In this document: positions 11,739 through 38,013 of the stretch, one piece after another
How positions within the stretch are numbered: the stretch's first letter is position 1
How the letters are laid out: every line of letters starts with the position of its first letter
NCBI GenBank assembly: GCA_965223845.1
Contig: CBDCXR010000004.1
Span: 6,656,001-6,720,000, forward strand
DNA from: Planctomycetota bacterium
GTDB taxonomy: Bacteria; Planctomycetota; UBA8108; SXIK01
Direction: 5' to 3'
DNA: 64,000 nt
Position numbers and translations under genes: made by a program
Notes under the pieces: generated by a model
Databases searched by the model: none
What the model saw: the letters and a program-made list of their open reading frames with translations, nothing else
Told to the model about the DNA's origin: nothing

Positions 11739-12256
11739 GGGGCAGACTCCATCTATGGGTTCGGGTTGTCGTGCCGCCGACCGGGGCGGCCGCCGAGGCT
11801 GGCTCTCGAGACGTTCGAGTGTGAGCTTCACATTACGGATCTTCGCTGCGGCTTCGTTGTCGAGCAAGATTCCCGTTGACTCGCTCTTCGTAGCGGCGCG
11901 ATCATGGCCGAGTCGGGGTGGAGATCGATTGATCGGGTCAACCTACTGGTAGCGGTAGAGAGAGGCGTCAATTCGGCCGGAGGGCGGTAGAGATCTGCCC
12001 TCGCGAGTCTGGCGCCAGGGCAGTGTTCTTCCGGAGACGCGTTTCCCAGCGAATCCGGAACGGTCCCAGACCGGTTGGCAACGCTGAAGATAGGTAGCGT
12101 GTCAACAGAGTCATCGCGTCGTTCTCAGGCGCGATCGAGATAGACGCGTCCAACACCGTGATTCTTCGATTCGCGGGGCATTCGGACTCGGCGCGAAGGC
12201 GGCCTCCGAGTCCGACGTCACTGTCGCCCAAATCGCGAGTACTGGAGGGTTTCGGC

Positions 12257-24711: not shown

Positions 24712-27700
24712 CCCGGTCGAGCCGCGAGACCTCGATGCCGGACACGCAAGGGATCGACCTCTCGAGGCCCTCGGCACGGAAGAAAACAATGTCGAGAAAA
24801 CCGTCGTCGACCTCCGTGTCGATGACGCGAACGATCGGCTTTCCGAATCCGTGCGCCGCGGGCTCGAACGATTCGATCTCGCGATTGTCTTCCACCGCGA
24901 CGTCAAAGATGCGAGGCCACTTGAGCGCGCGTTCACCCGCGATGAAGTGGAGAGTCACGCGGTACTCTCCCGGCGGGACGGGGATGCCGTAGCCCGGCAG
25001 CCGGGTTCCCTCTTCGTTGAATCGTCGCTCGGTCTGATAGATCGGCCGGTGCTCGAGCTCGATCTGCGGTTCGTTGAGATCCGGAACGTAATCGAGCTCT
25101 CCGCCCCGGAAGAAGCGATCGTAGCTCCAGATCGCATCCTCGCGACGATAGTTGTCGCGCGCGCCGCAGTTGATCCGGAGTGACTTCCCGGCGGCGAGCT
25201 GCTCGAGAAGCCAGTGCGCGTCGCGGGCGGAGTGAGGGAGCTCGGTGAGGTCGACCTCGCCGCGGGGAAATTCAGCGGCGAGTCGCTCGACGTCCATCTC
25301 CGCGTTGAACGCGGCCGCGAGCCATTCGTCCCAAACCGTCTCGCGCTTCGAGTGCCCCGATTCGAGTGCACGACGGAGCTCCGCCTCAGCGCGCGCGTGA
25401 TGTCCTAGCTGGGCGAGAGCATCGGCGAGCCGGAGAAACGGTTCCACATGGGCGGTGTCGGCGGCGAGGACGTCGGCGTACGCCTCGGCGGCGGCGTCCC
25501 AGCGGCTCTCCAGCTCGGCGATGCGGCCTTCGAAGTACTGCACGCGAGGGGTGTCGTCCTCGCGGGCGGCCGCGCGGAACGCAGCGAGCTTCGCGCGAGC
25601 GTCCGCGAGACGCTCGGTGGCAGAGATCTCAACGCTGACGCGGGCGTCTAGATAGAGATCGTCGTCGTCCGGCGCGGCGTTGAGGACGCGTACGGCGATG
25701 ACGTTCTCTCCGGCGCGGAGCCAGTCCGGAGGAATCGGGAGACGGTCGCTATACCAGAGATCGTGCCGGTACTGCGCGACCGCATCCGGCGCGACCGGTG
25801 TCCCCGGTTTACTCTCCAGGCTTCGCACGATCTCCCGGCCGTTCACGCATGCGACGTAGTCGTCGTCCATGCGAAAGTGGACGGCGTATCCTTCGCGACT
25901 CGATGCGTCGTCGAGCGTGAATCGCCACCGGGCGTAGAGCGACGCGGAGTTGCCCCGCATCGCGCTCACGTCCGTTCCGCCCGTCCGGCACTGCGGGTAC
26001 GCGAGGGGCGACGATCCCGTCGCCCAATCGTCGTCGCGGTATTCCGGCTCGATCCAGTTCTCGAGATCTCGGACTGAGTCGCCGATCGCGTAGCGGCACG
26101 TGGCATGCGCGGCGACCGGAAAGCGCGGCGCGTCGATCGCTGCGTCAACGGAGGCGTAACTGACGAGTCGGGGAGCGAGGTGCTCGCGGTCTTGCTCGAT
26201 GAGGGTCGTGATCGCTCGACTATGTGTATCGGTGAGCGAAGCTTTTTCGAGGCGGCGAAGCTGCGCCGCGACGGTGTCCACCTCGCCGAAGGGCTTCCGA
26301 TCTTGAAGGTGGATCTTCGAGTAGACGTGGTAGACGCCGTCGTAGTCGGGCGCGAAGGATTGAACCTTGTGGACTCGTTCGAGCGCCTCGTCGCGACGAT
26401 CCGCTTTGTAAAGAGTCTCCGTCAAGTACTTCCAGGGCGGGCACCAGTTCTCCGTGAGCTCGATGGTTCTCTCGTACGCGGCGATCCGTTCGCTCCGAAG
26501 AGCGGGGTTTCGTTCGTAAACGTTCCCGAGGCGATACCACGCCAGCCAACTGTCCGGATAGCGTTCGAGCGCGCTCTTGTACTCGGAGATCGCCTCGTCC
26601 TTCTTTCTCGCCTTGCGAAGGCACGAACCGAGATTGCACCGAACGAGCTCTCCTTCCATTCCGGCGGCCATCGCCGCGCGGTACTCGTCCGCAGCTTCAG
26701 CGAACATTCGCCGCCGCTCGAGAAGCCACGCGAGGTTGTAATGCGCGGCGGAGAGGGGCGCCGCGCCGCTCGTCGCGCGGCGATAGAGACCTTCTGCGCG
26801 GTGCGACTCGCCTCGCTCTTCGCAGATGGTTCCGAGGTGGTTGAGGGCGACGGATTGCTCCGGCGCGATCGCGAGGCTTCGCTCGAGCTCTGCTTCCGCC
26901 GCGTCGAGGTTTCCTCGCGCTTGGAGGGTTCGCGCGAGGCTGAGGCGCGCGCCGACGAAGCTCGAGTCGAGTCGAATCGCTTCGCGGAGCGACTTCTCCC
27001 CGCTCGCGAACTGTCCTCGGCGGGTGCGAGCGATGCCGGCGCCGACGAGCGCGGTGACGTTCCGCGGATCGCGGCGAGCGACGCTTTGATAGAGTTCGGT
27101 CGCGCGCTCGAGCTCGCCGCTCGCGAGCCGGATGTGCCCTTCGATGAGACTCGCACCGACGAGTCCGGGAGAAGACATCCGAACTTCGCGACAGACGGCG
27201 AGAGCTTCCTCGACCCGGCCGGCAGCGAAGAGCGCCCGTGAACGCTCGAGCTGGGCGGACGGGTCGTCGGAGAATCGTTCGCTCCACGCGACCGCGCGAT
27301 CGACGTCGCCGAGGTTGAGCAGCATCCAGGCGACGCTCCGCACAATCTCGTCCCGGCCCTCCGGCAGCGATCCGTCCGGCGCCACACGCCGGAGCAAGGC
27401 GTCCGCCTCCGTCGGTCGATCGAGGAGAAAGAGCGCCTTCGCGCCGAGGATCACTGGCTCCGCCCAACCATCGCGCAGGTTTTCTGCGGCAGCGAATGCA
27501 CGTGAGGCGATGACCGGGTCGCCGCGCTCGAGCTGCACGCGTCCGTAGTCGACGCGGCTTTGGAGGACGAGAAGATCAAGATCACTCTTCGGCCCCGACT
27601 CAATCGATTGCGCACTCACGGCGCCGAGCGCGGACGCGGCCGCCTCCCAGCGGGAGTCGAGCATCGCCCTCTGTCCGGCGACCCAGTGGCGGAGCCATGC

Positions 27701-29533
27701 GGGACCGGCAGCGAGTGCGCGATCTAGCTCGGCCGCGGCCGCGGTCGCCGCCGACGTGCGCTGGAGCCGAACGAGTGCTTCGTGACGCAGAAACTGCGCC
27801 GGCACGAACCTCCGATCCTTGGTGAGCGCGAGCGACGCGGCGGAATTCGCCGCGGCCGCTCGACCGCTCTCGAGGTGCGTGCGTCCGAGAAAGTAGTGCC
27901 CGATCGGGCGATCCGGCGCGAGGGCGATCGCGGCGCGAAACGAGGTGACGGCGCGTTCGAGCGGATCATCGGCGCCGGGCCACTCGAGCGCTCCCGCTTC
28001 GACGATCTCGGGGTGAGAGCGCAGAATCGGGAACCGATCGCCGAACGGTAGCTCGAGACGGAGCGGGTGGCGCCGTTTCCGATCTTCGAGGATTTCGTCG
28101 ACCGCCATTCTCTCGAGAGTCGCCTCGGGTCGCATTGCGACGCGCGCGAGCTCGGTGATCCCTCGGATCACGTGTCCTTCGTGTTCCGACTGAACTCGGT
28201 CGCGGTGGAGACTCCAGAACTGATTTCCCGCCGCAGCGCCGAGAGCGGCCAGGATCACGGTGAACGCGCCGATCGCGACCCCGACTCGGTGCCGCCGCAG
28301 CCAGTAGCCGATGCGATTCGCGCGCGTGAGGCGCGGCGTCTCACCGGGATCACCGCGCGCGATGCGAACGAGTTCTTCGCGCAGCGCCGCGGCGCTGCGG
28401 AAGCGCTCCGTCGGCTTCTTCCGGAGACACTTCATCGCGACCGCTTCGAGATCCGCCGAGACGTCGGGCGCGAGGCTCCTCACCGGTACGGGATCTTCGC
28501 TCCGGATCTTTCGCAGGGTCTCGAGGTCGTGCCGGCCCTCGAGTGGAGGACGGAGCGTCAGCATCTCGTAGAGCGTCGCACCGAGGCTGTAGATGTCCGA
28601 CGCCTCCTCGGCCGGCTGCGGCGGATCGGCGGCTTGCTCGGGGCTCATATAGAGGACGGTCCCGACGCGCTCGCCCGACTCCGTGAGACCGCTCTCGCCC
28701 TTGACGCGTGCGATTCCGAAGTCGAGGACTCGAAGATCGCCATCGGGACTCACGATGAGATTCGACGGCTTGATGTCGCGGTGCACGATGTCGTGGCTGT
28801 GCGCGTGATCGAGTCCCGCCGCGGCGCCCGCGAACGCGCGCGCGAGCCAGCGGCAGTACGAGTCGTGCGGACTTCGCGCCTCTGTCGGCTCGGCCGGCGA
28901 CCAGCGGCCGCGCGAGTCGTCGGGGAAACGTTCCGTCTCATCGCCCCAAGTCGAGCCCGACGCCTCGAGCTCGGAGAGCACGTGCCGCCGGAACTCCGCG
29001 AGCGATCCTCCGCTCGACGAACCGCAGCGCTCCCCGAGCGTCTTTAGAGTCTCGCCCTCGGCGAGCTCCATCGCGTAGTAGGGAACTCCGCCCGCGACGC
29101 CCCCGGCGAGCACAGAAACCACGTTCGGATGGCGGAGCCGCGCGGCCATGAGGGATTCGCGGCGGAATCGCGCGCGCGCCTTCGGATTCGAAGCGAGCGC
29201 CGCCGGAAGAATCTTGACCGCCGCGTCGCGATCGAGCGAACGCTGTCTCGCGCGGCAGACGATGCCCATTCCGCCCGTGTCGAGGATGCCGAGAATATCG
29301 AAGTCGCCGAGGCGCTCGGGAAGTGGCGGATCTTCGGCGAGCGCGCGGAGCTCCTCGAGGACGTCGAGCTCGTCGGTGAGGTTGCGAGCGGCGTCCGGGT
29401 TCTCGCGCAGAACTCGCGCTAGCTCTCCCGAGCCGGCTCGCGCCCTCAGGTCGAGTAGCTCGGCTAGGCGCAGCGCATCGTCGCGCTTCTCGGCCTCGTC
29501 TTCGGGATCACGAGGAGGATGACGATCGGACAT
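24698..29533 (-). CDS. Hanks-type Ser/Thr kinase with TM segment, TPR repeats, beta-sandwich domain and C-terminal malectin-like domain
   Basis: GGMGIV, AAVK, HRDIKPSN, DFG, GTVLYMSPEQA, SDIYSLG; TPR helices; RINCGA..WSYDRFF..YQTER..YRVTLHF..RIFDV. Confidence 0.93.
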   Translation of the reverse strand: MSDRHPPRDPEDEAEKRDDALRLAELLDLRARAGSGELARVLRENPDAARNLTDELDVLEELRALAEDPPLPERLGDFDILGILDTGGMGIVCRARQRSLDRDAAVKILPAALASNPKARARFRRESLMAARLRHPNVVSVLAGGVAGGVPYYAMELAEGETLKTLGERCGSSSGGSLAEFRRHVLSELEASGSTWGDETERFPDDSRGRWSPAEPTEARSPHDSYCRWLARAFAGAAAGLDHAHSHDIVHRDIKPSNLIVSPDGDLRVLDFGIARVKGESGLTESGERVGTVLYMSPEQAADPPQPAEEASDIYSLGATLYEMLTLRPPLEGRHDLETLRKIRSEDPVPVRSLAPDVSADLEAVAMKCLRKKPTERFRSAAALREELVRIARGDPGETPRLTRANRIGYWLRRHRVGVAIGAFTVILAALGAAAGNQFWSLHRDRVQSEHEGHVIRGITELARVAMRPEATLERMAVDEILEDRKRRHPLRLELPFGDRFPILRSHPEIVEAGALEWPGADDPLERAVTSFRAAIALAPDRPIGHYFLGRTHLESGRAAAANSAASLALTKDRRFVPAQFLRHEALVRLQRTSAATAAAAELDRALAAGPAWLRHWVAGQRAMLDSRWEAAASALGAVSAQSIESGPKSDLDLLVLQSRVDYGRVQLERGDPVIASRAFAAAENLRDGWAEPVILGAKALFLLDRPTEADALLRRVAPDGSLPEGRDEIVRSVAWMLLNLGDVDRAVAWSERFSDDPSAQLERSRALFAAGRVEEALAVCREVRMSSPGLVGASLIEGHIRLASGELERATELYQSVARRDPRNVTALVGAGIARTRRGQFASGEKSLREAIRLDSSFVGARLSLARTLQARGNLDAAEAELERSLAIAPEQSVALNHLGTICEERGESHRAEGLYRRATSGAAPLSAAHYNLAWLLERRRMFAEAADEYRAAMAAGMEGELVRCNLGSCLRKARKKDEAISEYKSALERYPDSWLAWYRLGNVYERNPALRSERIAAYERTIELTENWCPPWKYLTETLYKADRRDEALERVHKVQSFAPDYDGVYHVYSKIHLQDRKPFGEVDTVAAQLRRLEKASLTDTHSRAITTLIEQDREHLAPRLVSYASVDAAIDAPRFPVAAHATCRYAIGDSVRDLENWIEPEYRDDDWATGSSPLAYPQCRTGGTDVSAMRGNSASLYARWRFTLDDASSREGYAVHFRMDDDYVACVNGREIVRSLESKPGTPVAPDAVAQYRHDLWYSDRLPIPPDWLRAGENVIAVRVLNAAPDDDDLYLDARVSVEISATERLADARAKLAAFRAAAREDDTPRVQYFEGRIAELESRWDAAAEAYADVLAADTAHVEPFLRLADALAQLGHHARAEAELRRALESGHSKRETVWDEWLAAAFNAEMDVERLAAEFPRGEVDLTELPHSARDAHWLLEQLAAGKSLRINCGARDNYRREDAIWSYDRFFRGGELDYVPDLNEPQIELEHRPIYQTERRFNEEGTRLPGYGIPVPPGEYRVTLHFIAGERALKWPRIFDVAVEDNREIESFEPAAHGFGKPIVRVIDTEVDDGFLDIVFFRAEGLERSIPCVSGIEVSRLDRVTDN

Positions 29534-30230
29534 CGCGGTTCCGCCCCGTCCAGCTCGACTTAGCGCTCAGTGAGCGATCGCGCGGAAGGCTGAAGCTGTC
29601 AGTCGGGCCGAATCTCCGCCGCAGCTTCTGAAGGGCTCTTTTGAGGCGCATGGAAGTCGCCTCGCGAGTGAGACCGAGGCGCCGAGCCATCTCATTGACG
29701 GGCAGGTTCTCGATCTGAGTCATCAGGATGAGAGTTCGGTCGGCCTGCGGCAAACCGGCGAGCGCGCGCTCGAGGCGTTCGAATCGCTCCGTCTGCCGGA
29801 TGCGCGTTCCCTCCGTACTCCCTTTACGACGAGTTGGGTAGACCGAATCGTCGAGTTTTTTCGGGTTACCAGGCGCTCGCTTTCCGGTCTTGAAGTAGTG
29901 GCGGTCGTGATTGCGGATGACGTTCTCCGCCACACTCGCCAGCCAGCGGCGGAAGGTCGCGTGGGCCTTCGTTCGCGAGCTGTCGCCTTGCCACTTGAAC
30001 GAATCGATCGCCTTGATGGCCTGAAGGAGCGCATCCTGGACGACGTCCTCGACGGTTTCTCGCGTGCGGAGGCGCGGACCGAGTCGCGCGCGCACGAAGG
30101 CTTCGAGGTGAGGTCTCTGCGCAACGAGGAGTTGCTGCGACGCCGCGCGGTCGCCGTCGACCGCGGCGAGAACGAGTTTTTCTTCGCCGCGATCGTCGTG
30201 TCGCGGAGAAGAACGTGACGACCGTTGCAT
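29508..30230 (-). CDS. ECF RNA polymerase sigma factor coupled to the kinase gene
   Basis: EDVVQDALLQA..FRRWL (region 2) and LERALAGLPQADR..MARRLGLTREATSMRLKRAL (region 4); overlaps the kinase start. Confidence 0.92.
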   Translation of the reverse strand: MQRSSRSSPRHDDRGEEKLVLAAVDGDRAASQQLLVAQRPHLEAFVRARLGPRLRTRETVEDVVQDALLQAIKAIDSFKWQGDSSRTKAHATFRRWLASVAENVIRNHDRHYFKTGKRAPGNPKKLDDSVYPTRRKGSTEGTRIRQTERFERLERALAGLPQADRTLILMTQIENLPVNEMARRLGLTREATSMRLKRALQKLRRRFGPTDSFSLPRDRSLSAKSSWTGRNRDVRSSSSS

Positions 30231-30638: not shown

Positions 30639-31571
30639 ATGAGATCGAGCATCATCATTCCGGCGCACAACGAGGGCGAGCTTCTCGCGAAGACGATCGC
30701 GAGCTGTCTCGAGACGACCGCTGATCTCAGCACGGAGATCATCGTGGTCGACGATGCTTCGACGGACGGATGCCTCGACGATGTTCGCGTGCGATTTCCC
30801 TCGATCCGCGTCTACCGTTCGCGGCGGCGACTCGGACCCGGCCCCACTCGCCACCTCGGAGCTCGCAAGGCTCGCGGACGCGTTCTCGTCTTTCTCGACG
30901 GCCACTGTAAGCCGGCGCCGTGCGCGATCGAGCGCCTCGTGACGGACGTCGAGCTCTCGGACGGGGAAACCCTCTTTACTCCGCGCGTGGCCGATCTCGA
31001 TACCGCGAGCTGGGAGGAAGACCTGAGCAGCGTCGGCCACGGGTACGAGATCCAGCTCAAGGATTACTTCGCGCGTTGGGCTCGACGCCGCACCCTCGAG
31101 CGCCGCGGATCGTACTACGTCTCGCCGGCACTCACGAGTTGCGTGCTCGCGATGAGTCGGCGGCTCTACCGACGGGTGCGCGGTTTTGATCGCCACATGC
31201 GCGAGTGGGGCGTCGAAGATCTGGATCTCGGGCTGAAGACTTGGCTCATGGGCTCCGCCATCCTCAACAATCCGATCGCCACCGTGGGCCATCGCTTTCG
31301 GAAAGAAGGCGAGGCGGTCTACCCCGTCGCTCAAGACGCGATCGTGTGCAACCAGATGATCTCGGCGCGAAAGAACCTTACGGACGCGAGTTGGGAGCAC
31401 TGGCAGGCGCGTCTCCGCCGGCACCGCAGCGCAGAGGTCGTCGAAGCGGCGCAGTCTCGGTTCGACCGGGTTCGAGCCGGTGTCGAGCGCGAGCGTCGCT
31501 ACTTGATGCGGAACCGGGCGCGCGACGAGTTCTGGTTCGCGCGCCGGTTTGGGCTCGATTGGCCGGCTTGA
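30639..31571 (+). CDS. GT-A fold glycosyltransferase, polypeptide GalNAc-transferase (GT27)-like
   Basis: SIIIPAHNE, EIIVVDDAS, FLDGHC (DxH), GFDRHMREWGVEDLDLGLKTWLMG, VGHRFRK. Confidence 0.85.
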   Translation: MRSSIIIPAHNEGELLAKTIASCLETTADLSTEIIVVDDASTDGCLDDVRVRFPSIRVYRSRRRLGPGPTRHLGARKARGRVLVFLDGHCKPAPCAIERLVTDVELSDGETLFTPRVADLDTASWEEDLSSVGHGYEIQLKDYFARWARRRTLERRGSYYVSPALTSCVLAMSRRLYRRVRGFDRHMREWGVEDLDLGLKTWLMGSAILNNPIATVGHRFRKEGEAVYPVAQDAIVCNQMISARKNLTDASWEHWQARLRRHRSAEVVEAAQSRFDRVRAGVERERRYLMRNRARDEFWFARRFGLDWPA

Positions 31572-31592
31572 CCGATCGTCGACATCGTCCGA

Positions 31593-31880
31593 TCAGGTTC
31601 CGAGCGCGTAACCGACGAGCAACCCGAGTGCGAGTCCGACGACGAGTCCGACGAGGCCGCCGATGATCGCCCCCTGCAGGAAGGCGCATTTGCACTTCTC
31701 GGCGCACTCGGCGAGGCCGCACTTTTTCCCGCGCTCGAACTCCTCGTCCGATGCAGTCGTCGAATCGCCGCCGCCGTCGTCGGAACCGGCCGAGCTCGTC
31801 GACGTCGTATGATCGCCGCCGCCCGATCGTCCGCTGCCGTGTTCCCCGTGTCCCTCTGATCGTTCCGCGCTGTGCGCCAT
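31593..31880 (-). CDS. Small protein (95 aa): Gly/Ser/Thr/His-rich N-terminus, Cys cluster, C-terminal glycine-zipper TM helix
   Basis: AAGGAG RBS before ATG 31880; MAHSAERSEGHGEHGSG..TTSTSS..CGLAECAEKCKC..GAIIGGLVGLVVGLALGLLVG. Confidence 0.7.
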   Translation of the reverse strand: MAHSAERSEGHGEHGSGRSGGGDHTTSTSSAGSDDGGGDSTTASDEEFERGKKCGLAECAEKCKCAFLQGAIIGGLVGLVVGLALGLLVGYALGT

Positions 31881-32377
31881 GGTGTTCTCCTTCTCTGCCT
31901 CGTACGCGCCGAGAGCCCGCGCAAGATTTGAATTCGGCCGGAGATCGGGTCCGCTCGAACGCCCGTTCGATCGCGAGTCCTCGACCATTCGTTCCGAATC
32001 GCCTGCGGATCGCTTCTCGATGCCGCCCGAGATGCCTCGTTCTCCGGCTCTCAAGCATGTCTTGCGCAGACTCTTAGCCGCGCGTCTTTGCTCCCGTCCG
32101 ACCCCGCATCGACGTCTCGTGCTCGAGTTGAACCACACACCCGAGGAGCTCCAGACCGGTGTAGTCGCCGCCGTAACTCGGAGTCGAGAAAAAAATACGC
32201 GCTGCTGATCGTCGCCGCCGAATTCCCCGCACCACGACGCCTGCGCGTCCCGCTTCGCCGATCGAACTGCTCCCTTCTCGCGCTTGATCTTTCCCCGTTA
32301 CGGCCCCCGAGAATCCGGGCTGGTCTGATCGGGGTAGCGAGGGCCTACCCCGCGGACACCAGCACGAAGGGAGCAGC

Positions 32378-33367
32378 ATGAAAGCGAACTTGACGGCACC
32401 TGCTATCGGCGCGACTCCGTACTCGAGAGGACTCGACGGCATCCTCGAGCGCATGCGCGGAGGAGATGTGGACGGCGGCATGGGCGAGCTCTTTCGCTCG
32501 CTCAAGTCGTGGCGCGCGAACGCCGCCGGAGACTGGGAAGACGTGATCGAGCGCCAGTGTCTCGCGCATCCGGTCGCCGACGCGATCTTTCAGGATCCGA
32601 TGGCGTTTCATTCCTACACTCGGCCCCGGGGATATCCCGGCGACGCTGAGCTCCTCGACTACATCTACGGACTCAAGGCGAGCGAGGTCGCGACGAACGC
32701 ATCGCCTCTCGGTCGCGCCGTGCACGAGTTTCTGTACGACGCGCCGGCGGCCCGAGCGGTGAGAGCGCGTCGCGAGGTGCTCGCGCGGCTCGTCGATGAA
32801 ACCGCCGCACGGGTAAAGAACGCTCGTGTCCTGTCGATCGCCGCCGGACACCTTCGCGAAGCGGCTCTCTCGAGCGCCGTGCGTGAAGGAAGGCTCGGCG
32901 AGTACGTCGCGCTCGACCAGGACGAGCGCAGTCTCGAGGAGATCGAGGCGAGCTACGGCTCTCTCGGCGTGCGAACGGTTCCGGGCTCCGTACGCGATCT
33001 CCTCGCTGGACGCGTCGAGTTCGCGGGCTTCGATCTCGTCTACGCGGCCGGGCTCTACGACTACCTCCAGCAGCGCACGGCGCGCCGGTTGACTCGCATC
33101 ATGTTCGACGCGCTTCGGCCGGGCGGGAGACTCCTCGTCGCCAATTTTTTGCCGGACATCGGCGACGTCGGCTTCATGGAGAGCTACATGAGCTGGCAGC
33201 TGATCTACCGGTCGCGCCCTGAGCTCCTCGACGTCGCCGAGGAGATCCCCATCGCGAGTCACGATCGGCTCCGGCTGTACACCGAGCGAAGTCGCTCGAT
33301 CCTCTTCCTCGATGTCGAGCGGAACGAAGAGAGGAGGGCGAACGATGCTTGCGAAGGAGATCTTTAA
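32378..33367 (+). CDS. Class I SAM-dependent methyltransferase, PhcB-like (3-hydroxy fatty acid methyl ester synthase-like)
   Basis: SYTRPRGYPGDAELLDYIY, VLSIAAGHLRE, ALDQD, FDLVYAAGLYDYL, LRPGGRLLVANF, MESYMSWQLIYRS. Confidence 0.8.
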   Translation: MKANLTAPAIGATPYSRGLDGILERMRGGDVDGGMGELFRSLKSWRANAAGDWEDVIERQCLAHPVADAIFQDPMAFHSYTRPRGYPGDAELLDYIYGLKASEVATNASPLGRAVHEFLYDAPAARAVRARREVLARLVDETAARVKNARVLSIAAGHLREAALSSAVREGRLGEYVALDQDERSLEEIEASYGSLGVRTVPGSVRDLLAGRVEFAGFDLVYAAGLYDYLQQRTARRLTRIMFDALRPGGRLLVANFLPDIGDVGFMESYMSWQLIYRSRPELLDVAEEIPIASHDRLRLYTERSRSILFLDVERNEERRANDACEGDL

Positions 33368-34412
33368 TCTCGGCGGGCGCTCGACGCCGCGCGGGCTCGC
33401 GATCTTCGCCTTCGATGCGGCGCTCTACCTCGCCATCACTGCGGCCATCGTCCGGGTCGACTCGCTCTGGCTGAAGCTCGCGCTCGGCGTCGCCGGAGGC
33501 TTCGCGATCGGGTTTCTCTTCCTTCTCGGGCACGACGCCTGCCACCAGAGCCTCACGCCGCGGAAGCGGCTCAATCACGTCCTCGGTCGCCTTGCGTTTC
33601 TGCCGAGTCTCCATCCCTTCAGCCTTTGGGATCTCGGGCACAACCGCGTCCATCACCGCTTCACGAACCTGCGCGAGAAGGACTACGTCTGGGCGCCGCT
33701 CACGCTCGAAGAGTACGAGCGAGCGAGCCGCTGGCAACGTTTAGTCTATCGCTTCTACCGCACGCCGATCGGTTGTCTCTGCTACTTCCTCGTCGACATC
33801 TGGTGGCGGCGCATGTTCGCGTACGAACTGACGGTGAAGAGTCGCACGTGGACGTATCAACTCGATCGCGCCCTCGTCGCGGTGTTCATCGTCGCGCAAG
33901 TCGCGGGGATCTGGACCCTCGATCGCTGGTTCCATCCCGGTGCGGCGACCGGCGCGGGGCACACCGTGATCCTCTTCGGCAGCGCTCTCGTCCTTCCCTT
34001 CCTCGTCTGGAACGCCCTCGCGTCGTTTCTCATCTACCTCCACCACACGCATCCGACAGTGCGGTGGTACCGCGAAAAGAGCGACTGGGCGCGCGCGAGC
34101 GTGCAGCTCGAGAGCACGGTCCACACGGTGTTTCCCGGTCCGATCAATTGGCTCCTCCACCGGATCATGGAGCACACCGCCCACCATGTGAATCCGGCCA
34201 TTCCCTGCTACCACCTGAAAAAGGCGCAGGATTACATCGTCCGCCATCATCCCGACCAGGTCGTCGTCGAGCGGTGGTCGCTCCGGAAGTTCCTCGACTC
34301 CGTCCGACGCTGCAAGCTCTACGACTTCGATCGCGGCGTGTGGACGGACTACGAGGGGCGAGTGACGTCGGTATCCGCGGCGGCACCGGCCGAGACCGCA
34401 GCGAGTGCTTGA
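33345..34412 (+). CDS. Membrane fatty acid desaturase (DesA/omega-6-like)
   Basis: Three His boxes HDACH, HNRVHH and HTAHH; TM segments; GAGGAGG RBS; overlaps the methyltransferase 3' end. Confidence 0.93.
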   Translation: MLAKEIFNLGGRSTPRGLAIFAFDAALYLAITAAIVRVDSLWLKLALGVAGGFAIGFLFLLGHDACHQSLTPRKRLNHVLGRLAFLPSLHPFSLWDLGHNRVHHRFTNLREKDYVWAPLTLEEYERASRWQRLVYRFYRTPIGCLCYFLVDIWWRRMFAYELTVKSRTWTYQLDRALVAVFIVAQVAGIWTLDRWFHPGAATGAGHTVILFGSALVLPFLVWNALASFLIYLHHTHPTVRWYREKSDWARASVQLESTVHTVFPGPINWLLHRIMEHTAHHVNPAIPCYHLKKAQDYIVRHHPDQVVVERWSLRKFLDSVRRCKLYDFDRGVWTDYEGRVTSVSAAAPAETAASA

Positions 34413-34414
34413 TC

Positions 34415-37400
34415 ATGGTCTACCCGACGCTGAACGGATCCTCCGCGCGGTTGATCGCACCGCGCGACCTAGACGAGTACCTCGAGCTCTACCGGGCGAT
34501 GGTGATGGCGCGCGCGCTCGACGAAGTGGAACGCGCGCTCGTCGAACGCGGCGAGGCGCACTTCCACGTGAGCGGCGCTGGACACGAGGGCATCGCCGTC
34601 GCGAACCGTCACCTCGAACCGGAGGATTGGCTGCATCCCCACTACCGTGACAAGGCGCTTCTGCTCGCGCGGGGCGTTCCAGTCGTCCGGTTTCTCGACG
34701 CGCTCGTCTCGAACGCGCGATCGCATTCCCGGGGACGCCAGATGAGCGCTCACATGAGCGCGCCCGAGCTCCGCGTCCTGAGCACGGTCGGTCCGGTCGG
34801 AAACAACGCGCTGCAAGCGGTCGGAGTCGCCGCCGAGGTCGCGCGCGGGCCCGGGTCGCCGATCGTTTTCTGCAGCCTCGGCGACGGAACGACGCAAGAA
34901 GGCGAGGTTCTCGAGGCTGTCGCCGAGGCGGCGCGCTCGGAGCTCCCCGTTCTCTTCGTCGTCGAGGAGAATCGCTACGCGATTTCGACCGAAACCGCGG
35001 GCCGGACGTTCTACGATCTGCCGCGCGGACCCGCGTCGGAGCTCTTCGGCGTGCCGATTCTTCGCGTCGACGGCGCCGACGTCTCGGCGGCGGACCGCGT
35101 CCTCGGAGCCGCCATCGGTCGCATGCGCAGCCAGCGCTCGCCGGCGATCGTGATCTTCGAGGTCGAGCGACTCTGTAGCCACACGAATGCCGACGATGAG
35201 CGCGTCTACCGCTCGGAGAAGGAGCGGCTCGAGGCGAGGGAGTCGCGCGATCCGATTCCGGTTCTCGAGGAGCAGCTTCGGCGCTCGGGCGTCACGGAAG
35301 ACGCGCTCGGGCGCTTGCGCGACGAGGTCACAGAGTCGCTCAGCGAGGCGACGGCGTCCGCGCTCGCGGTGGGGGATCCCGAGCCCGCGCTCGACGCTCG
35401 TCCCGCCGCCTTGGCGTCGATGGGTCACGAGTACCGAGGGCGAGAGAGCGGTGAGCAACGGACGATGCTCGAAGCGATGCGTTCCGTGCTCGAAGCCTGG
35501 CTCGAGTGCGATCCTCGCGTGTCGATCTTCGGAGAGGACATCGAAGATCCGAAGGGAGATGTCTTCGGACTGACGCGCGGGCTCAGCACGCGATTCGGCG
35601 ATCGCGTCCGCAATTCGCCCCTCAGCGAATCGACGATTGTCGGGGTCGCCATCGGACGCGCCCTCGCCGGCGGACGACCTGTCGCGTGCATTCAATTCGC
35701 GGACTTCCTTCCCCTCGCGTGGAACCAGATCGCCGCCGAGCTCGGCACCATGGCGTGGCGAACGGACGGCGGCTGGGAAAGTCCGGTGCTCGTCCTCGCG
35801 CCCTGCGGCGGCTACCGGCCCGGGCTCGGACCGTTTCATGCGCAGACCTTCGAGTCGAGCCTCGCGCACGTTCCGGGCATCGACGTCGTCGTTCCGTCGA
35901 CCGCCGGCGACGCGGCGGGACTCCTGAACGCCGTGCTCGCGTCGAAGCGACCCACGGTGTTCCTCTACCCGAAGATCTGCCTCAACGATCCGTCGCGTTC
36001 GACGTCGAATGACATCGGCGCGCATTTCGTTCCGGTCGGCGTCGCTCGCCGCCTGCGTTCGGGCGACGATCTCACGCTCGTCAGTTGGGGGAGTACGATC
36101 CCTCTTTGTGAGCGGGCCGCACAGACGCTCTCGGAGGCCGGCGCGCGAGTCGATCTCTTCGATCTCCGCTCGATCGCGCCCTGGGACCGCGATGCCGTGC
36201 TCGAGTCGGCGCGGCGGACGCGCCGGCTTCTCGTCGTTCACGAGGACAACGCGACGTGCGGATTCGGCGCGGAGATCGTCGCGACCATCGCGGAGGCTTG
36301 CCCCGCGGTCGAATGCCGTCGGGTGACTCGTCCCGATACTTACGTTCCGTGCAACTTCACGAACCAGATCACGGTCCTTCCGTCGTACCGCTCGATCGTC
36401 TCGGCAGCGGCGGAGCTGGTCGATTTCGAGCTCGAGTGGCGGGATCGCGAGGTCGACGCGAGCGACGAGGTGATCGTTCCGGCGCATGGATCGAGTCCGG
36501 CGGATCAGTCGGTGAGCGTCGTCGAGTGGCTAGCCGCGCCCGGCGACGAAGTCGAAGCGGGAGCGACGATCGCCGAGGCCGAGGCGGACAAGGCGGTCTT
36601 CGAGATCAAAGCCCCGCGTCCCGGAACGATCCGGCGGCTCTGCGTCGGGCCGGGCGAGACGGTGCGCGTCGGAGAACCTCTCTACGCCCTCGAGGCCGTC
36701 GGCCGCGAGCTCGCCGGTCGACGGGCCGGGCGGGCGAGGGCGCGTCGTGAGCGGCGCGGGAACGAATCCCCGCACCTACGCCGACGTCCGCGTCGGGGCG
36801 ATGCGCCGCGACCCGGGACTCTCGCTGAACCGGCAGCGGAGCGGACCGGCGTCGTTCGGCTGGCGCCTCCGTGCTGCGCGCTCGGTTCCCGCATCGTGAC
36901 GAACGAAGAGATCGCGGCTCGGTTTCCCGATCGGAGCGCCGAGGACATCCGAACTCGAACCGGTATCGAGCGCAGGCGGCGCGTGAACGCTGACGAAGAC
37001 GCGTTCGCGCTCGCCGTCCGCGCGAGCTCTGCTGCGCTCGAGCGCGCCGGGCTCGCCGCGTCCGATCTCGATCTAGTCGTCTGCAGCACGACGACTCCGC
37101 CGCTCGCGAGCCCGACGCTCGCGTGTCGAGTGCTCGATGCGCTGTCGGAGTCGGGTCGCGCCTACGCGGAGGCGTACGACCTCAACGCCGCCTGTTCGGG
37201 GTATCTCTACGCGCTCGCGAGCGCATACGACTTTCTCTCTGCGCGTCGCGCGGGGATCGCGCTCGTTCTCACGGCCGAGGTACTCTCACCGGTCCTCGAC
37301 GAGGCAGATTTTGCTACGAGCATCCTCTTCGGCGACGCAGCATCGGCGACGATCCTTCGCGCGGGTCTCGAAGCGGGCGATGCGCGCAGCGCGGTCGGCT

Positions 37401-37843
37401 GGACCGTGAGCGGACGGCCGTTCGTGACGGCGCGCGGCGAACGTGGGTCGCTCCTCCGTGTTCCGCACGCTGGGGCCGGCTTCGCGAGCATGCAGGGTCG
37501 ACGCGTCTTCGGCGAGGCGGTGCGCGCGATGAGCGATGCCCTTCACCGGGCCGCGAGCGCTGCGGGCAGCTCGGTCGGTGATCTCGACTGGATCGTGCCG
37601 CACCAGGCGAACTCTCGGATCATCGAGGCGGTGACGCATCGCCTCGGGGGCGATCCGGTACGCGTCGTCGACTGGATCCGCGACTGGGGGAACACCTCTT
37701 CGACGAGTATCCCCCTCTGCCTCGAGAGGCTCGCGCTCGAGCTCGGCGGCGGCGAGAGACTGGGGCTCTGCGCCTTTGGTGGCGGGCGGACCGCGGGGGC
37801 GGCGGTGCTCGAAACGAGACGGACTGGCCCTCCGGGTGCGTGA
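34415..37843 (+). CDS. Fused 2-oxoacid dehydrogenase E1alpha-E1beta, lipoyl domain and FabH-type ketosynthase (KAS III)
   Basis: ATG 34415, just after the desaturase stop; ThDP motif GDGTTQEG..EENRYAIST; E1beta FGEDI..NSPLSESTIVG..QFADF; lipoyl EADKAVFEI; KAS III DLNAACSG, HQAN and GNTSS. Confidence 0.92.
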   Translation: MVYPTLNGSSARLIAPRDLDEYLELYRAMVMARALDEVERALVERGEAHFHVSGAGHEGIAVANRHLEPEDWLHPHYRDKALLLARGVPVVRFLDALVSNARSHSRGRQMSAHMSAPELRVLSTVGPVGNNALQAVGVAAEVARGPGSPIVFCSLGDGTTQEGEVLEAVAEAARSELPVLFVVEENRYAISTETAGRTFYDLPRGPASELFGVPILRVDGADVSAADRVLGAAIGRMRSQRSPAIVIFEVERLCSHTNADDERVYRSEKERLEARESRDPIPVLEEQLRRSGVTEDALGRLRDEVTESLSEATASALAVGDPEPALDARPAALASMGHEYRGRESGEQRTMLEAMRSVLEAWLECDPRVSIFGEDIEDPKGDVFGLTRGLSTRFGDRVRNSPLSESTIVGVAIGRALAGGRPVACIQFADFLPLAWNQIAAELGTMAWRTDGGWESPVLVLAPCGGYRPGLGPFHAQTFESSLAHVPGIDVVVPSTAGDAAGLLNAVLASKRPTVFLYPKICLNDPSRSTSNDIGAHFVPVGVARRLRSGDDLTLVSWGSTIPLCERAAQTLSEAGARVDLFDLRSIAPWDRDAVLESARRTRRLLVVHEDNATCGFGAEIVATIAEACPAVECRRVTRPDTYVPCNFTNQITVLPSYRSIVSAAAELVDFELEWRDREVDASDEVIVPAHGSSPADQSVSVVEWLAAPGDEVEAGATIAEAEADKAVFEIKAPRPGTIRRLCVGPGETVRVGEPLYALEAVGRELAGRRAGRARARRERRGNESPHLRRRPRRGDAPRPGTLAEPAAERTGVVRLAPPCCALGSRIVTNEEIAARFPDRSAEDIRTRTGIERRRRVNADEDAFALAVRASSAALERAGLAASDLDLVVCSTTTPPLASPTLACRVLDALSESGRAYAEAYDLNAACSGYLYALASAYDFLSARRAGIALVLTAEVLSPVLDEADFATSILFGDAASATILRAGLEAGDARSAVGWTVSGRPFVTARGERGSLLRVPHAGAGFASMQGRRVFGEAVRAMSDALHRAASAAGSSVGDLDWIVPHQANSRIIEAVTHRLGGDPVRVVDWIRDWGNTSSTSIPLCLERLALELGGGERLGLCAFGGGRTAGAAVLETRRTGPPGA

Positions 37844-38013
37844 TGCGAGCGCGCTTCGCGCGGAGGTCTGCGGGGGCGTCGCGATCGCGATTGACTTCCG
37901 TTCGGGCGAGGAAATAATCGCATCCTTCGTGCCGGGGCCGCCGCGACGGATCGGGGTCCGATCCGCGGGCCGCCGGCATCGCTCGCCCCCGCTCTCTCCC
38001 GAGGCCACCCGCG

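Follow-up and report, generated by a model that had tools for sequence, protein, structure and literature searches.

The window, the whole stretch of 64,000 nucleotides that was analysed (C4:6656001-6720000), holds on its forward strand an uninterrupted ORF at 34415..37843 that encodes a protein of 1142 aa. Pfam places in it, all above cut-offs, the domains E1_dh (residues 26-323), Transket_pyr (349-522), Transketolase_C (542-648), Biotin_lipoyl (685-758), ACP_syn_III (921-987) and ACP_syn_III_C (1049-1133), and an AlphaFold2 model of the whole chain reaches a mean pLDDT of 90.2 and a pTM of 0.73. Directly upstream on the same strand lies a membrane fatty-acid desaturase gene (33312..34412; PF00487, 102.7 bits), with three His boxes in its translation and a weak DesA-like match (93.5 bits, below the cut-off of 500). 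Its start is overlapped by a class I SAM-dependent methyltransferase-like gene (32378..33367, forward strand), which was placed through its nearest Atlas clusters (score 0.99) and has weak Pfam methyltransferase matches below cut-off. Since the desaturase stop lies 2 nt before the ATG of the fusion, co-transcription of the two is likely, and the fusion is likely the last gene of a methyltransferase-desaturase-fusion operon. Such an operon suggests a role in membrane-lipid tailoring, in a context that is not conserved elsewhere: neither the desaturase gene (0/80 loci) nor the methyltransferase-like gene (0/80 loci) was found beside the fusion at other loci, and the fusion has no conserved neighbourhood, its commonest neighbour occurring in 12 of 50 loci.

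The order E1alpha-E1beta-lipoyl-linker-KAS III, read from the sequence in the initial annotation, is borne out by Pfam and NCBIfam matches along this one ORF, and the finer features claimed there hold as well: a lipoyl lysine (K726 within E-A-D-K-A), an Arg-rich linker (18 Arg in the 70 residues 760-829), a KAS III Cys/His/Asn triad (C927/H1063/N1093) and the absence of an E2 catalytic domain, as neither a 2-oxoacid_dh nor an E3_binding domain was detected in the protein by Pfam at E <= 0.01. The annotation had also named an assembly or frameshift artefact, which here would have joined separate E1, E2-lipoyl and fabH genes, and we give this reading practically no credence. We found no support for it, and three observations refute it. 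All 120 best database homologues (1014-1399 aa; 50-59% identical to the query, the query itself aside) contain E1, lipoyl and KAS III Pfam domains, and the architecture recurs in many independent assemblies. In each of 4 Logan runs, which together represent one sample, possibly the source sample, a single 14.4-kb contig spans positions 33300-38000, and thus the whole gene, without a gap or a differing letter. The AlphaFold2 model is of high confidence throughout. The fusion is real, and both of its ends are present at 50 of 80 genome loci.

The N-terminal half comprises an E1alpha, ThDP-binding part (residues 26-323, 34490..35383; PF00676) with G156-D157-G158...N186 and H256, followed by an E1beta part (residues 349-648, 35459..36358; PF02779 and PF02780) with pyrimidine-binding and C-terminal domains, E405 and H475. 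The Pfam scores are far above the cut-offs (E1_dh 149.4, Transket_pyr 85.6 and Transketolase_C 101.5 bits against 22, 27 and 25.9). Among 119 aligned family members, on which all conservation counts are based, G156, G158, N186, H256, E405 and H475 are invariant (119/119 each) and D157 is found in 117. In alignments, H256 corresponds to His291 of human BCKDH E1alpha (1dtw_A), and the counterparts of E405 and H475 in G. stearothermophilus E1p are E59beta and H128beta. These E1 Glu and His residues act in cofactor activation and lipoate acylation, according to the part of PMC2663715 drawn on here. By its domains, ThDP/Mg motif, Glu and both His, the E1 part classes with the heterotetramer (alpha/beta) type of 2-oxoacid dehydrogenase E1 and is predicted to be competent for reductive acylation. 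Among solved E1s it scores highest with those of T. thermophilus and human BCKDH and next with G. stearothermophilus PDH; among NCBIfam models, by contrast, PDH E1 comes first, and the cut-offs of the substrate-specific models are not reached (TIGR03181, 185.9 against 411; PRK11892, 188.5 against 454). Branched-chain 2-oxoacids and pyruvate are candidate substrates.

The lipoyl domain (residues 685-758, 36467..36688; PF00364, 53.1 bits) carries K726 (codon 36590-36592), which is conserved in 119/119 members, with E723 in 117/119. Lipoyl domains are told from biotinyl domains by the turn E-x-(D/T)-K-(A/S) as opposed to A-M-K-M. The family consensus around K726 is E-A-(D/T)-K-(S/A), position 725 being D in 56, T in 48 and M in 0 of 119. 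With this fold and Lys turn and no A-M-K-M, residues 685-758 group with lipoyl domains, and Lys726 is predicted to be lipoylated; the genome encodes a LipA (355 bits). The domain follows E1beta closely, at a median of 16 residues (range 16-25) from W675 in E1beta to G692 in the lipoyl domain. Behind it runs a basic linker (residues 759-822, 36689..36880) with the motif E-x-P-G-x-P-x-L-x-R-R (residues 781-791, 36755-36787), in which P786 is conserved in 113, L788 in 93 and R790 in 96 of 119 members. For the linker measured over residues 760-829, slightly beyond these limits, the median values are 60 aa for length (55-84) and +6 for net charge. AlphaFold2 models a strand at 784-790 (block pLDDT 82) with low-confidence stretches on either side.

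The C-terminal part is a FabH-like KAS III (residues 823-1133, 36881..37813) whose closest solved structures are the FabHs 2ebd and 4ryb. It passes the NCBIfam FabH model NF006829 by about 1 bit (250.2 against 249, over residues 823-1133) and stays below the cut-off of TIGR00747 (216.6 against 292.1). In FabH, the His and Asn of the catalytic triad serve malonyl decarboxylation and Arg249 docks the ACP. Mapped on E. coli FabH, the triad residues C927 (37193-37195), H1063 (37601-37603) and N1093 (37691-37693) are each invariant (119/119), the Arg249 equivalent R1068 is an Arg in 108/119 members, and position 257 is an Arg in 111/119. A different picture emerges at the CoA-adenine site, where, as far as the consulted part of PMC4606726 goes, Trp32 and Arg151 of FabH sandwich the adenine and Thr28 contributes a hydrogen bond. 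D844 and F966 replace Trp32 and Arg151 here. Among the 119 fused domains, the Trp32 position is D in 93, E in 20 and W in none, the Arg151 position is F in 96 and R in none, and the Thr28 position is mostly R (51) or M (45). By comparison, 15 stand-alone FabHs drawn from this genome, from the same phylum and from 4 fusion-bearing genomes retain W32 in 14, R151 in 15 and T28 in 13 cases. Positions 26-32 and 151-154 hold 6 of the 17 sites that discriminate fused from stand-alone KAS domains, and both W32 and R151 occur in 0 of 67 cluster representatives with lipoyl plus KAS parts compared with 51 of 83 lacking the lipoyl part. On these alignments, the fused KAS III has lost the CoA-adenine clamp and does not match the acyl-CoA primer site of FabH. 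The clamp is not universal in KAS III enzymes, since a divergent stand-alone FabH-like control (L106) also lacks Trp32. The residues that contact pantetheine are largely retained (R36 in 86/119, N247 in 108/119), so a pantetheine-borne primer, either acyl-ACP or CoA held without the adenine clamp, could be accommodated.

Of 251 genomes sampled from the phylum of G322, a genome labelled Verrucomicrobiales, 24 gave a fused lipoyl-plus-KAS match, so that about one in ten of those sampled has the fusion; it also occurs in other PVC bacteria. In a quick E1 tree, the E1 regions of 24 fusions sampled from the 119 form one group (SH-aLRT 100) that is sister to four E1-lipoyl-E2 single chains of Planctomycetota (SH-aLRT 98). 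The KAS tree, with 20 sampled fused domains and 16 stand-alone FabHs, sets the fused ones apart on a long stem (1.6 changes per column). The fusion appears to have originated when a KAS III took the place of the E2 core in a single-chain dehydrogenase. Two variants depart from the common layout: P0260 (1942 aa) continues as E1-lipoyl-KAS III-KR-ACP, and P0314 is a lipoyl-KAS protein of 442 aa, with 442-aa cluster members on 8 and 7 contigs.

Several known systems resemble parts of this protein. It shares with BCKDH and PDH complexes the E1alpha/E1beta folds, the ThDP/Mg motif, the Glu and His residues, the lipoyl Lys and an expected need for E3; unlike these complexes, it is one chain with no E2 core and no peripheral-subunit-binding domain, its lipoyl domain is joined to E1beta through 16 residues, and the proposed acyl acceptor is a ketosynthase Cys instead of CoA. 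Lacking E2 catalytic and peripheral-subunit-binding domains, the protein does not amount to a complete E1-E2-E3 complex. The single-chain E1alpha-beta-lipoyl-E2 proteins of Planctomycetota and Verrucomicrobiota (L062-L065, L069-L088) have the same front half, and all 14 of the ORFs checked contain E1_dh, Transket_pyr, Transketolase_C, Biotin_lipoyl and 2-oxoacid_dh; the C-terminal part of these proteins is an E2 catalytic domain instead of the KAS III of the fusion, and their spacer between E1 and the lipoyl domain is longer (~68 residues in L062). Compared with FabH of FAS II, the fold, the Cys-His-Asn triad and the ACP-docking Arg are alike, whereas the Trp32/Arg151/Thr28 clamp is replaced, the branch is long and separate, and a lipoyl domain stands in front. 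Glycolicacyl-ACP systems of the QncN/QncL/QncM type in Streptomyces and the Photorhabdus locus L067 (order E1alpha-beta, lipoyl-E2-ACP, PKS-type KS) also pair a ThDP-dependent E1-like enzyme with a lipoyl domain and, in a manner resembling that proposed for the fusion, deliver the acyl unit to an assembly-line carrier protein without freeing it as acyl-CoA. However, they retain an E2-type acyltransferase between lipoyl and ACP, and their ketosynthase, where present, is a separate FabF/PKS-type KS, while the fusion has no E2 domain and its KAS III is attached directly. The section of PMC6335953 used here assigns to QncL a pyrimidine-binding, a transketolase-C, a lipoyl and an acyltransferase domain, and calls QncM an ACP. 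Actinobacterial OdhA, a two-in-one E2-E1 2-oxoglutarate dehydrogenase, is likewise a 2-oxoacid dehydrogenase fusion in a single polypeptide; as portrayed in the part of PMC10415282 available, it differs in having E2 catalytic and E1o domains, in making succinyl-CoA and in lacking a ketosynthase. By its domain matches, the protein has a KAS III fused directly behind an E1-lipoyl front with no E2 domain between them, and we found no publication on such a fusion in the literature searched.

The remaining components of a dehydrogenase complex are encoded elsewhere. A single lipoamide dehydrogenase match in the genome exceeds the cut-off (C4:1741462-1742841, 566 bits); it lies far outside the window, in agreement with the earlier statement that the window has no E3 gene, and E3-like genes are present in all 5 fusion-bearing genomes tested, 4 of them above cut-off. 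Since the genes for E3 and LipA lie at other places in this genome, we expect E3 to act in trans. The genome also has a separate FabH and 3 E2 catalytic domains, none of which is in the window; five other genomes have 1-3 such domains, with a single one each in G320 and G323. FabH-family matches above cut-off were found in all genomes checked, in pieces in G320 and as a divergent copy in G319 (27% identity to E. coli FabH, without Trp32).

We think it somewhat better than an even bet that the acyl group of a decarboxylated 2-oxoacid passes from the lipoyl arm to the KAS cysteine and condenses there with malonyl-ACP, with E3 supplied in trans. The fusion would then be a self-contained starter-unit module that leads from 2-oxoacid decarboxylation to Claisen condensation on ACP with no intermediate CoA thioester. 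The fused E1alpha-beta, presumably as a dimer mimicking an alpha2beta2 assembly, would decarboxylate the 2-oxoacid with ThDP/Mg, and the acyl group would be transferred reductively to lipoyl-Lys726 on the domain tethered 16 residues behind E1beta. The S-acyl-dihydrolipoyl arm would enter the KAS III tunnel and acylate Cys927, a step that would stand in for the acyl-CoA half-reaction of FabH as well as for the transfer to CoA by E2. His1063 and Asn1093 would decarboxylate malonyl-ACP docked at Arg1068, yielding 3-oxoacyl-ACP for FAS II or a related ACP-dependent pathway, and the dihydrolipoyl group would be re-oxidised by the lipoamide dehydrogenase encoded elsewhere. We infer the steps beyond decarboxylation from the domain order, the conservation of the catalytic residues and the loss of the CoA-adenine site. 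Within the limits of sequence comparison, the earlier proposal that a ketosynthase stands in for E2 and takes its acyl group from the lipoyl arm is therefore supported: the E1 part groups with the E1alpha-beta-lipoyl-E2 proteins of Planctomycetota, the lipoyl Lys, the E1 His residues and the KAS triad are all invariant (119/119), the ACP-docking Arg is kept in 108/119 members, and the Trp32/Arg151 clamp is lost in 119/119. The short tether, 16 residues compared with ~68 in the E2-bearing single chain L062, counts against this reading.

Because E2 domains and FabH are encoded in all genomes checked, a route through CoA is conceivable, in which the fused E1-lipoyl part works with a separate E2 core to make acyl-CoA, the fused KAS III uses this product as FabH does, and the fusion merely raises local concentrations. 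The E2 catalytic domains, E3 and CoA-dependent FabH of the genomes examined fit this arrangement, as do the mostly retained pantetheine contacts R36 and N247, but we regard it as unlikely. W32 and R151 are missing from 119/119 fused domains although present in 14/15 and 15/15 stand-alone FabHs, no peripheral-subunit-binding domain was detected through which the protein could attach to an E2 core, and G320 and G323 each have just one E2 catalytic domain. The invariant fused lipoyl domain would also be redundant, since an E2 brings its own. Improbable, too, is a KAS III that replaces E2 as a non-condensing acyltransferase, passing the acyl group from lipoyl through Cys927 to holo-ACP or CoA and yielding acyl-ACP or acyl-CoA. 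Acyltransferases with the KAS III fold exist, and Cys927 and the ACP-docking Arg would serve such a transfer equally well; the invariance of His1063 and Asn1093 (119/119) argues against it, and so does P0260, where KR and ACP directly follow the KAS, as expected if its product is 3-oxoacyl-ACP.

The initial annotation had also raised ThDP/KAS III carboligation of the carbazole type, in which the ThDP part would form an acyloin that KAS III condenses further, with no acylation of lipoate. A ThDP enzyme and a KAS III do co-occur in bacterial carbazole pathways, as outlined in the part of PMC7466098 consulted. The fusion nonetheless differs from such a pair, which has an acyloin-forming ThDP enzyme, not known to use a lipoyl carrier, encoded in a biosynthetic cluster. 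Carboligation is a poor fit, since it would leave both the invariant lipoyl Lys726 and the lipoate-acylating E1 histidines without a function. The E1 part, moreover, belongs to the alpha/beta type of 2-oxoacid dehydrogenases and has E1-lipoyl-E2 enzymes as its sister group, and no conserved biosynthetic neighbourhood surrounds the gene (commonest neighbour, 12/50 loci). We consider this alternative very improbable.

Members of this family now carry automatic names such as 'transketolase', 'thiamine pyrophosphate-dependent enzyme', 'beta-ketoacyl-ACP synthase 3' and '2-oxoisovalerate dehydrogenase E1 component', which would need correcting. We know of no precedent for acyl transfer from a lipoyl group to a ketosynthase cysteine. 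At roughly even chances, the fusion may be the first ketosynthase to receive its primer from an S-acyl-dihydrolipoyl arm and not from acyl-CoA or acyl-ACP, that is, a CoA-independent 2-oxoacid:malonyl-ACP oxidative-decarboxylating condensing enzyme. With the same even odds, lipoyl priming may directly commit branched-chain 2-oxoacids or pyruvate to the synthesis of lipids or polyketides on ACP. If so, the catalytic cysteine of a ketosynthase would be a third acyl acceptor for the lipoyl arm, in addition to CoA, reached through E2, and ACP, reached through E2-like domains, and fatty-acid and polyketide chains would have a new start that bypasses the acyl-CoA pool. Such an enzyme would offer engineered FAS or PKS systems a compact single-protein entry point for chosen 2-oxoacids, and would explain how lipid priming can be kept separate from 2-oxoacid catabolism in some PVC bacteria.

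We examined the architecture of the fusion and found that window positions 34415-37843 on the plus strand form a single open frame of 1142 residues, whose ATG lies two bases past the stop codon of the upstream gene. Pfam reports six domains, every one far over its cut-off: E1_dh (residues 26-323), Transket_pyr (349-522), Transketolase_C (542-648), Biotin_lipoyl (685-758), ACP_syn_III (921-987) and ACP_syn_III_C (1049-1133). Residues 823-1133 also match the NCBIfam FabH model NF006829, scoring 250.2 bits where the cut-off is 249. Together, the open frame and the Pfam and NCBIfam matches confirm the order E1alpha-E1beta-lipoyl-linker-KAS III proposed in the initial annotation. The lipoyl lysine it placed in a D-K-A motif is K726, within E-A-D-K-A; the ketosynthase Cys/His/Asn triad is C927/H1063/N1093; and the linker described as Arg-rich has 18 Arg in the 70 residues between the lipoyl and KAS domains. 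Neither an E2 catalytic domain nor an E3-binding domain is reported by Pfam in the protein, and the sole lipoamide dehydrogenase match over cut-off in the genome is on the same contig, ~4.9 Mb from the fusion, as expected from the earlier statements that the protein has no E2 catalytic domain and the window no E3 gene. Because the open frame, the domains, the key residues and the E2/E3 absence all agree, every element of that first observation is correct.

An assembly or frameshift artefact is ruled out by homologues of the same architecture, gap-free Logan contigs and a confident structural model. E1, lipoyl and KAS III domains are all present in each of the 120 best matches from a collection of 5.8 billion proteins; leaving aside the query, these matches show 50-59% identity and lengths of 1014-1399 aa, one being a truncated form of 1014 aa. 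Window 33300-38000 is spanned by one 14.4-kb Logan contig in each of four runs, with 0 differing letters and 0 gaps, the four runs representing one sample that is possibly the source of this DNA. Among the sequencing runs, none is listed as holding RNA. The AlphaFold2 model, built with 119 homologues, has a mean pLDDT of 90.2 and a pTM of 0.73, with low confidence limited to residues 1-7, 768-775 and 794-810 and the last three residues.

Using an alignment of 119 full-length fusion members, we found that G156, G158, N186, H256, E405, H475 and K726 are invariant and that D157 is kept in 117/119. Geobacillus stearothermophilus E1p has E59beta and H128beta at the positions aligned with E405 and H475, and human BCKDH E1alpha has His291 at the one aligned with H256. 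The lysine turn reads E (117/119), A, D or T (56 and 48 members), K (119/119) and S or A, and none of the members has a Met before the lipoyl Lys. By the usual rule, a lysine turn without a preceding Met belongs to a lipoyl rather than a biotinyl domain, which marks the fused carrier as a putative lipoyl domain. In one report on E1p (PMC2663715), E59beta is the cofactor activator, H128beta and H271alpha serve the reductive acetylation of lipoate, and all known E1s are said to have a conserved histidine at the 128beta position. Judged by the residues they carry, the E1 and lipoyl parts of the fusion are CATALYTICALLY complete. Assignment of the substrate by similarity was dropped as ambiguous: the top-scoring solved E1s are the Thermus thermophilus and human branched-chain enzymes, with PDH E1s only slightly lower, whereas the best NCBIfam E1 models are PDH E1 models, all under their cut-offs.

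E1beta is joined to the lipoyl domain by a tether of 16 residues, which raises a geometric question. Beyond the lipoyl domain, the otherwise variable basic linker contains a conserved motif, E-x-P-G-x-P-x-L-x-R-R, at residues 781-791 (window 36755-36787), with P786 present in 113/119 members. Residues 784-790 are predicted by AlphaFold2 as a confident beta-strand, a candidate docking element that could contact E3 or ACP or mediate an inter-domain contact.

We mapped the KAS domain on E. coli FabH (K-12 record) and compared it with 15 stand-alone FabH controls, comprising the window genome's own, ten from its phylum and four from fusion-bearing genomes. The Cys112/His244/Asn274 triad is present in 119/119 fused and 15/15 stand-alone proteins. 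Arg249, which we take to be the ACP-docking residue of E. coli FabH, is Arg in 108/119 and 14/15, respectively, and position 257 is Arg in 111/119 fused domains and either Arg (13/15) or Lys (2/15) in the controls. Trp32 is present in 14/15 controls, one divergent control likewise being without it, and in 0/119 fused domains (D 93, E 20); Arg151 is present in 15/15 and 0/119 (F 96, L 9, Y 7), and Thr28 in 13/15 controls, its position being R in 51 and M in 45 of the 119 fused domains. According to a paper on E. coli FabH (PMC4606726), the CoA adenine is sandwiched by Trp32 and Arg151 and hydrogen-bonded to Thr28. Of 317 positions, 17 are conserved in stand-alone FabH but different in fused KAS, and six of these lie at 26-32 and 151-154. 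For 67 of the best 150 cluster representatives (50% identity), the alignment spans the lipoyl part as well as the KAS part (36 of them are 1087-1207 aa long), and 0/67 have both W32 and R151, compared with 51/83 representatives without the lipoyl part. In a tree with 20 of the 119 fused KAS domains sampled, a long stem (1.6 changes per column; SH-aLRT 100) separates these from 16 stand-alone FabHs. In short, the fused KAS appears to retain the capacity for acyl-cysteine formation, malonate decarboxylation and ACP docking, with a systematic loss of the CoA-recognition residues of FabH.

To approach the origin of the fusion, we built a quick maximum-likelihood tree from the E1alpha-beta region (42 rows, 24 fusions sampled; root not established). 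In it the fusions form one group (SH-aLRT 100), with four Planctomycetota proteins as sister (SH-aLRT 98); next outward are ten proteins from Verrucomicrobiota and two of the E1alpha-beta type from Photorhabdus. Each of the 14 planctomycetal and verrucomicrobial open frames (1008-1160 aa) encodes E1alpha-beta, lipoyl and E2 catalytic parts in one chain of five domains. Such loci (L062-L065 and L069-L088, for example L063:7950-11204) are found in Planctomycetota and Verrucomicrobiota. The simplest reading is that KAS III took the place of the E2 core in a single-chain E1-lipoyl-E2 enzyme, a direction of change that we infer, and the KAS fusion apparently descends from all-in-one E1-E2 dehydrogenases of this kind. 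The two forms can co-exist, since in one fusion-bearing genome (G321) the KAS fusion shares contig C14 with a single-chain E1-lipoyl-E2 protein (open frame of 1166 aa), ~110 kb apart (285298-286215 and 396311-396982).

Variant architectures were also found. The database protein P0260 (1942 aa, on a 63.6-kb contig) combines E1alpha-beta, lipoyl, KAS III, KR and ACP domains, with ~260 unassigned residues past the ACP. KR and ACP right after KAS are what would be expected for a 3-oxoacyl-ACP product, a strong hint only, from a single sequence. Shorter proteins include P0314, a 442-aa lipoyl-KAS protein (its 442-aa cluster members occur on 8 and 7 contigs of up to 28.9 kb), and E1beta-lipoyl-KAS forms of 769-852 aa, with one such cluster in Atlas. 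At least one E1beta-lipoyl-KAS form may be a truncated gene call; P0254 (769 aa) is in the same 90% cluster as a 1134-aa member. The short 'split' forms were not counted as split genes, as most begin within E1beta and are probably truncated gene calls.

Judging by source names, fusion carriers fall within Planctomycetota (Pirellulales, Gemmataceae, Phycisphaeraceae, Lignipirellula cremea) and Verrucomicrobiota. When a single genome was scanned for each species, 80 loci came up, 50 of them with both fusion ends, from Verrucomicrobiota, Kiritimatiellales/Pontiellaceae, Phycisphaerae, other Planctomycetota and one MAG labelled Deltaproteobacteria. A match over lipoyl and KAS was present in 24/251 sampled genomes from the phylum of a genome titled Verrucomicrobiales (G322), nearly all within open frames of at least 1100 aa. 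Within the window's own phylum, a fused match was found in 2/301 sampled genomes, the only other carrier (G287) having unrelated neighbours, and in 0/30 genomes of the nearest relatives (same family, order and class) at E <= 1e-150. Close relatives are therefore not usable for synteny, and the fusion in this genome is patchy and possibly acquired. The G+C content of window 36001-38000, the 3' half of the fusion gene, is 0.70 versus ~0.65 for the whole window; this and the patchy distribution would fit acquisition by transfer.

Two genes precede the fusion on the same strand: one resembles class I SAM methyltransferases (32378-33367), and the other encodes a membrane fatty-acid desaturase with intact His boxes (33312-34412, its stop 2 nt before the fusion). 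Downstream of the fusion is a promoter-like site (37891-37918) ahead of proS. Methyltransferase, desaturase and fusion look like a three-gene lipid-tailoring operon. With the desaturase's first ATG, the two upstream frames overlap by 56 nt (33312-33367); an alternative Met 11 codons further down would give a smaller overlap. The window neighbours (GT2, methyltransferase, desaturase, ProRS, ScpA) were found by tblastn at 0/80 related loci, and the commonest shared neighbour cluster occurs at 12/50 full loci. Function was not assigned from gene neighbourhood, as the arrangement is not conserved; the fusion is usually a lone gene, matching the expectation for a self-contained function. Elsewhere in the window, the ~800 bases between the GT2 and methyltransferase genes (31571-32378) contain only Arg-rich ORFs, none with a Pfam match on one strand or the other, and no gene was assigned to them. 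At 12158-20875 (plus strand) lies the gene for a protein of 2905 aa that combines DUF7948, SBBP beta-propeller and TIG domains. At 24698-29533 (minus strand), adjoined by an ECF-type sigma factor gene (29508-30230), lies the gene for a Ser/Thr kinase of 1611 aa that has TPR repeats as well as a malectin domain.

The conserved residues are consistent with ThDP-dependent decarboxylation of a 2-oxoacid by the E1 part, and the invariant Lys and His residues suggest that the lipoate on Lys726 would then be reductively acylated. The absence of E2, together with the loss of the CoA site, suggests that the acyl group on the S-acyl-dihydrolipoyl arm would move straight to Cys927 by thioester exchange, which would bypass CoA. 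Decarboxylative condensation with malonyl-ACP would follow, as suggested by the triad, the ACP-docking Arg and the KR-ACP relative, and the dihydrolipoyl group would be re-oxidised by E3 in trans. The window genome encodes an E3, LipA, three E2s and a separate FabH elsewhere, and the five fusion-bearing genomes encode E3-like genes (5/5, over cut-off in 4/5), 1-3 E2 domains each and a separate FabH-family match each, fragmented in one and a divergent copy in another.

This gene content also permits a route in which the acyl group may be transferred through a trans E2 instead of directly to KAS. Transfer of lipoyl-borne acyl groups to carrier-protein assembly lines has parallels, but always via an E2-type domain. 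Photorhabdus caribbeanensis (L067:7923-13329) has consecutive genes for E1alpha-beta (670 aa), lipoyl-E2 catalytic-ACP (514 aa) and a PKS-type ketosynthase (615 aa), which look like a system that would put a 2-oxoacid-derived starter on ACP for a polyketide synthase; in Streptomyces QncN/L/M, as outlined in one report (PMC6335953), a ThDP-derived C2 unit passes to a lipoyl-E2 protein and then to ACP. A weakness of the CoA-independent reading is that the pantetheine-contacting residues R36 (86/119) and N247 (108/119) are mostly retained in fused KAS. Another is that Trp32 is also missing from one divergent stand-alone control. Complex prediction of the lipoyl domain (680-765) with a KAS dimer (815-1142, two copies) scored 0.00 against a mark of 0.32 and is neutral on docking.

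Searching the literature outside subscription journals and supplementary files, we did not come across any account of an E1-lipoyl-KAS III fusion; the architecture is common in sequence databases, where it goes by generic names, and is, as far as we have seen, uncharacterised. Compared with a 2-oxoacid dehydrogenase, the protein has the E1 and lipoyl-domain features but not the complete complex, as E2 is missing, and compared with FabH it lacks one defining functional feature, the acyl-CoA site. From its sequence, it would work like a 2-oxoacid dehydrogenase E1 and lipoyl carrier coupled to FabH. The presence of a FabH-like gene alongside it makes it probable that the fusion is a dedicated second initiator, and we would guess that its role may be the supply of branched or otherwise special starter units.
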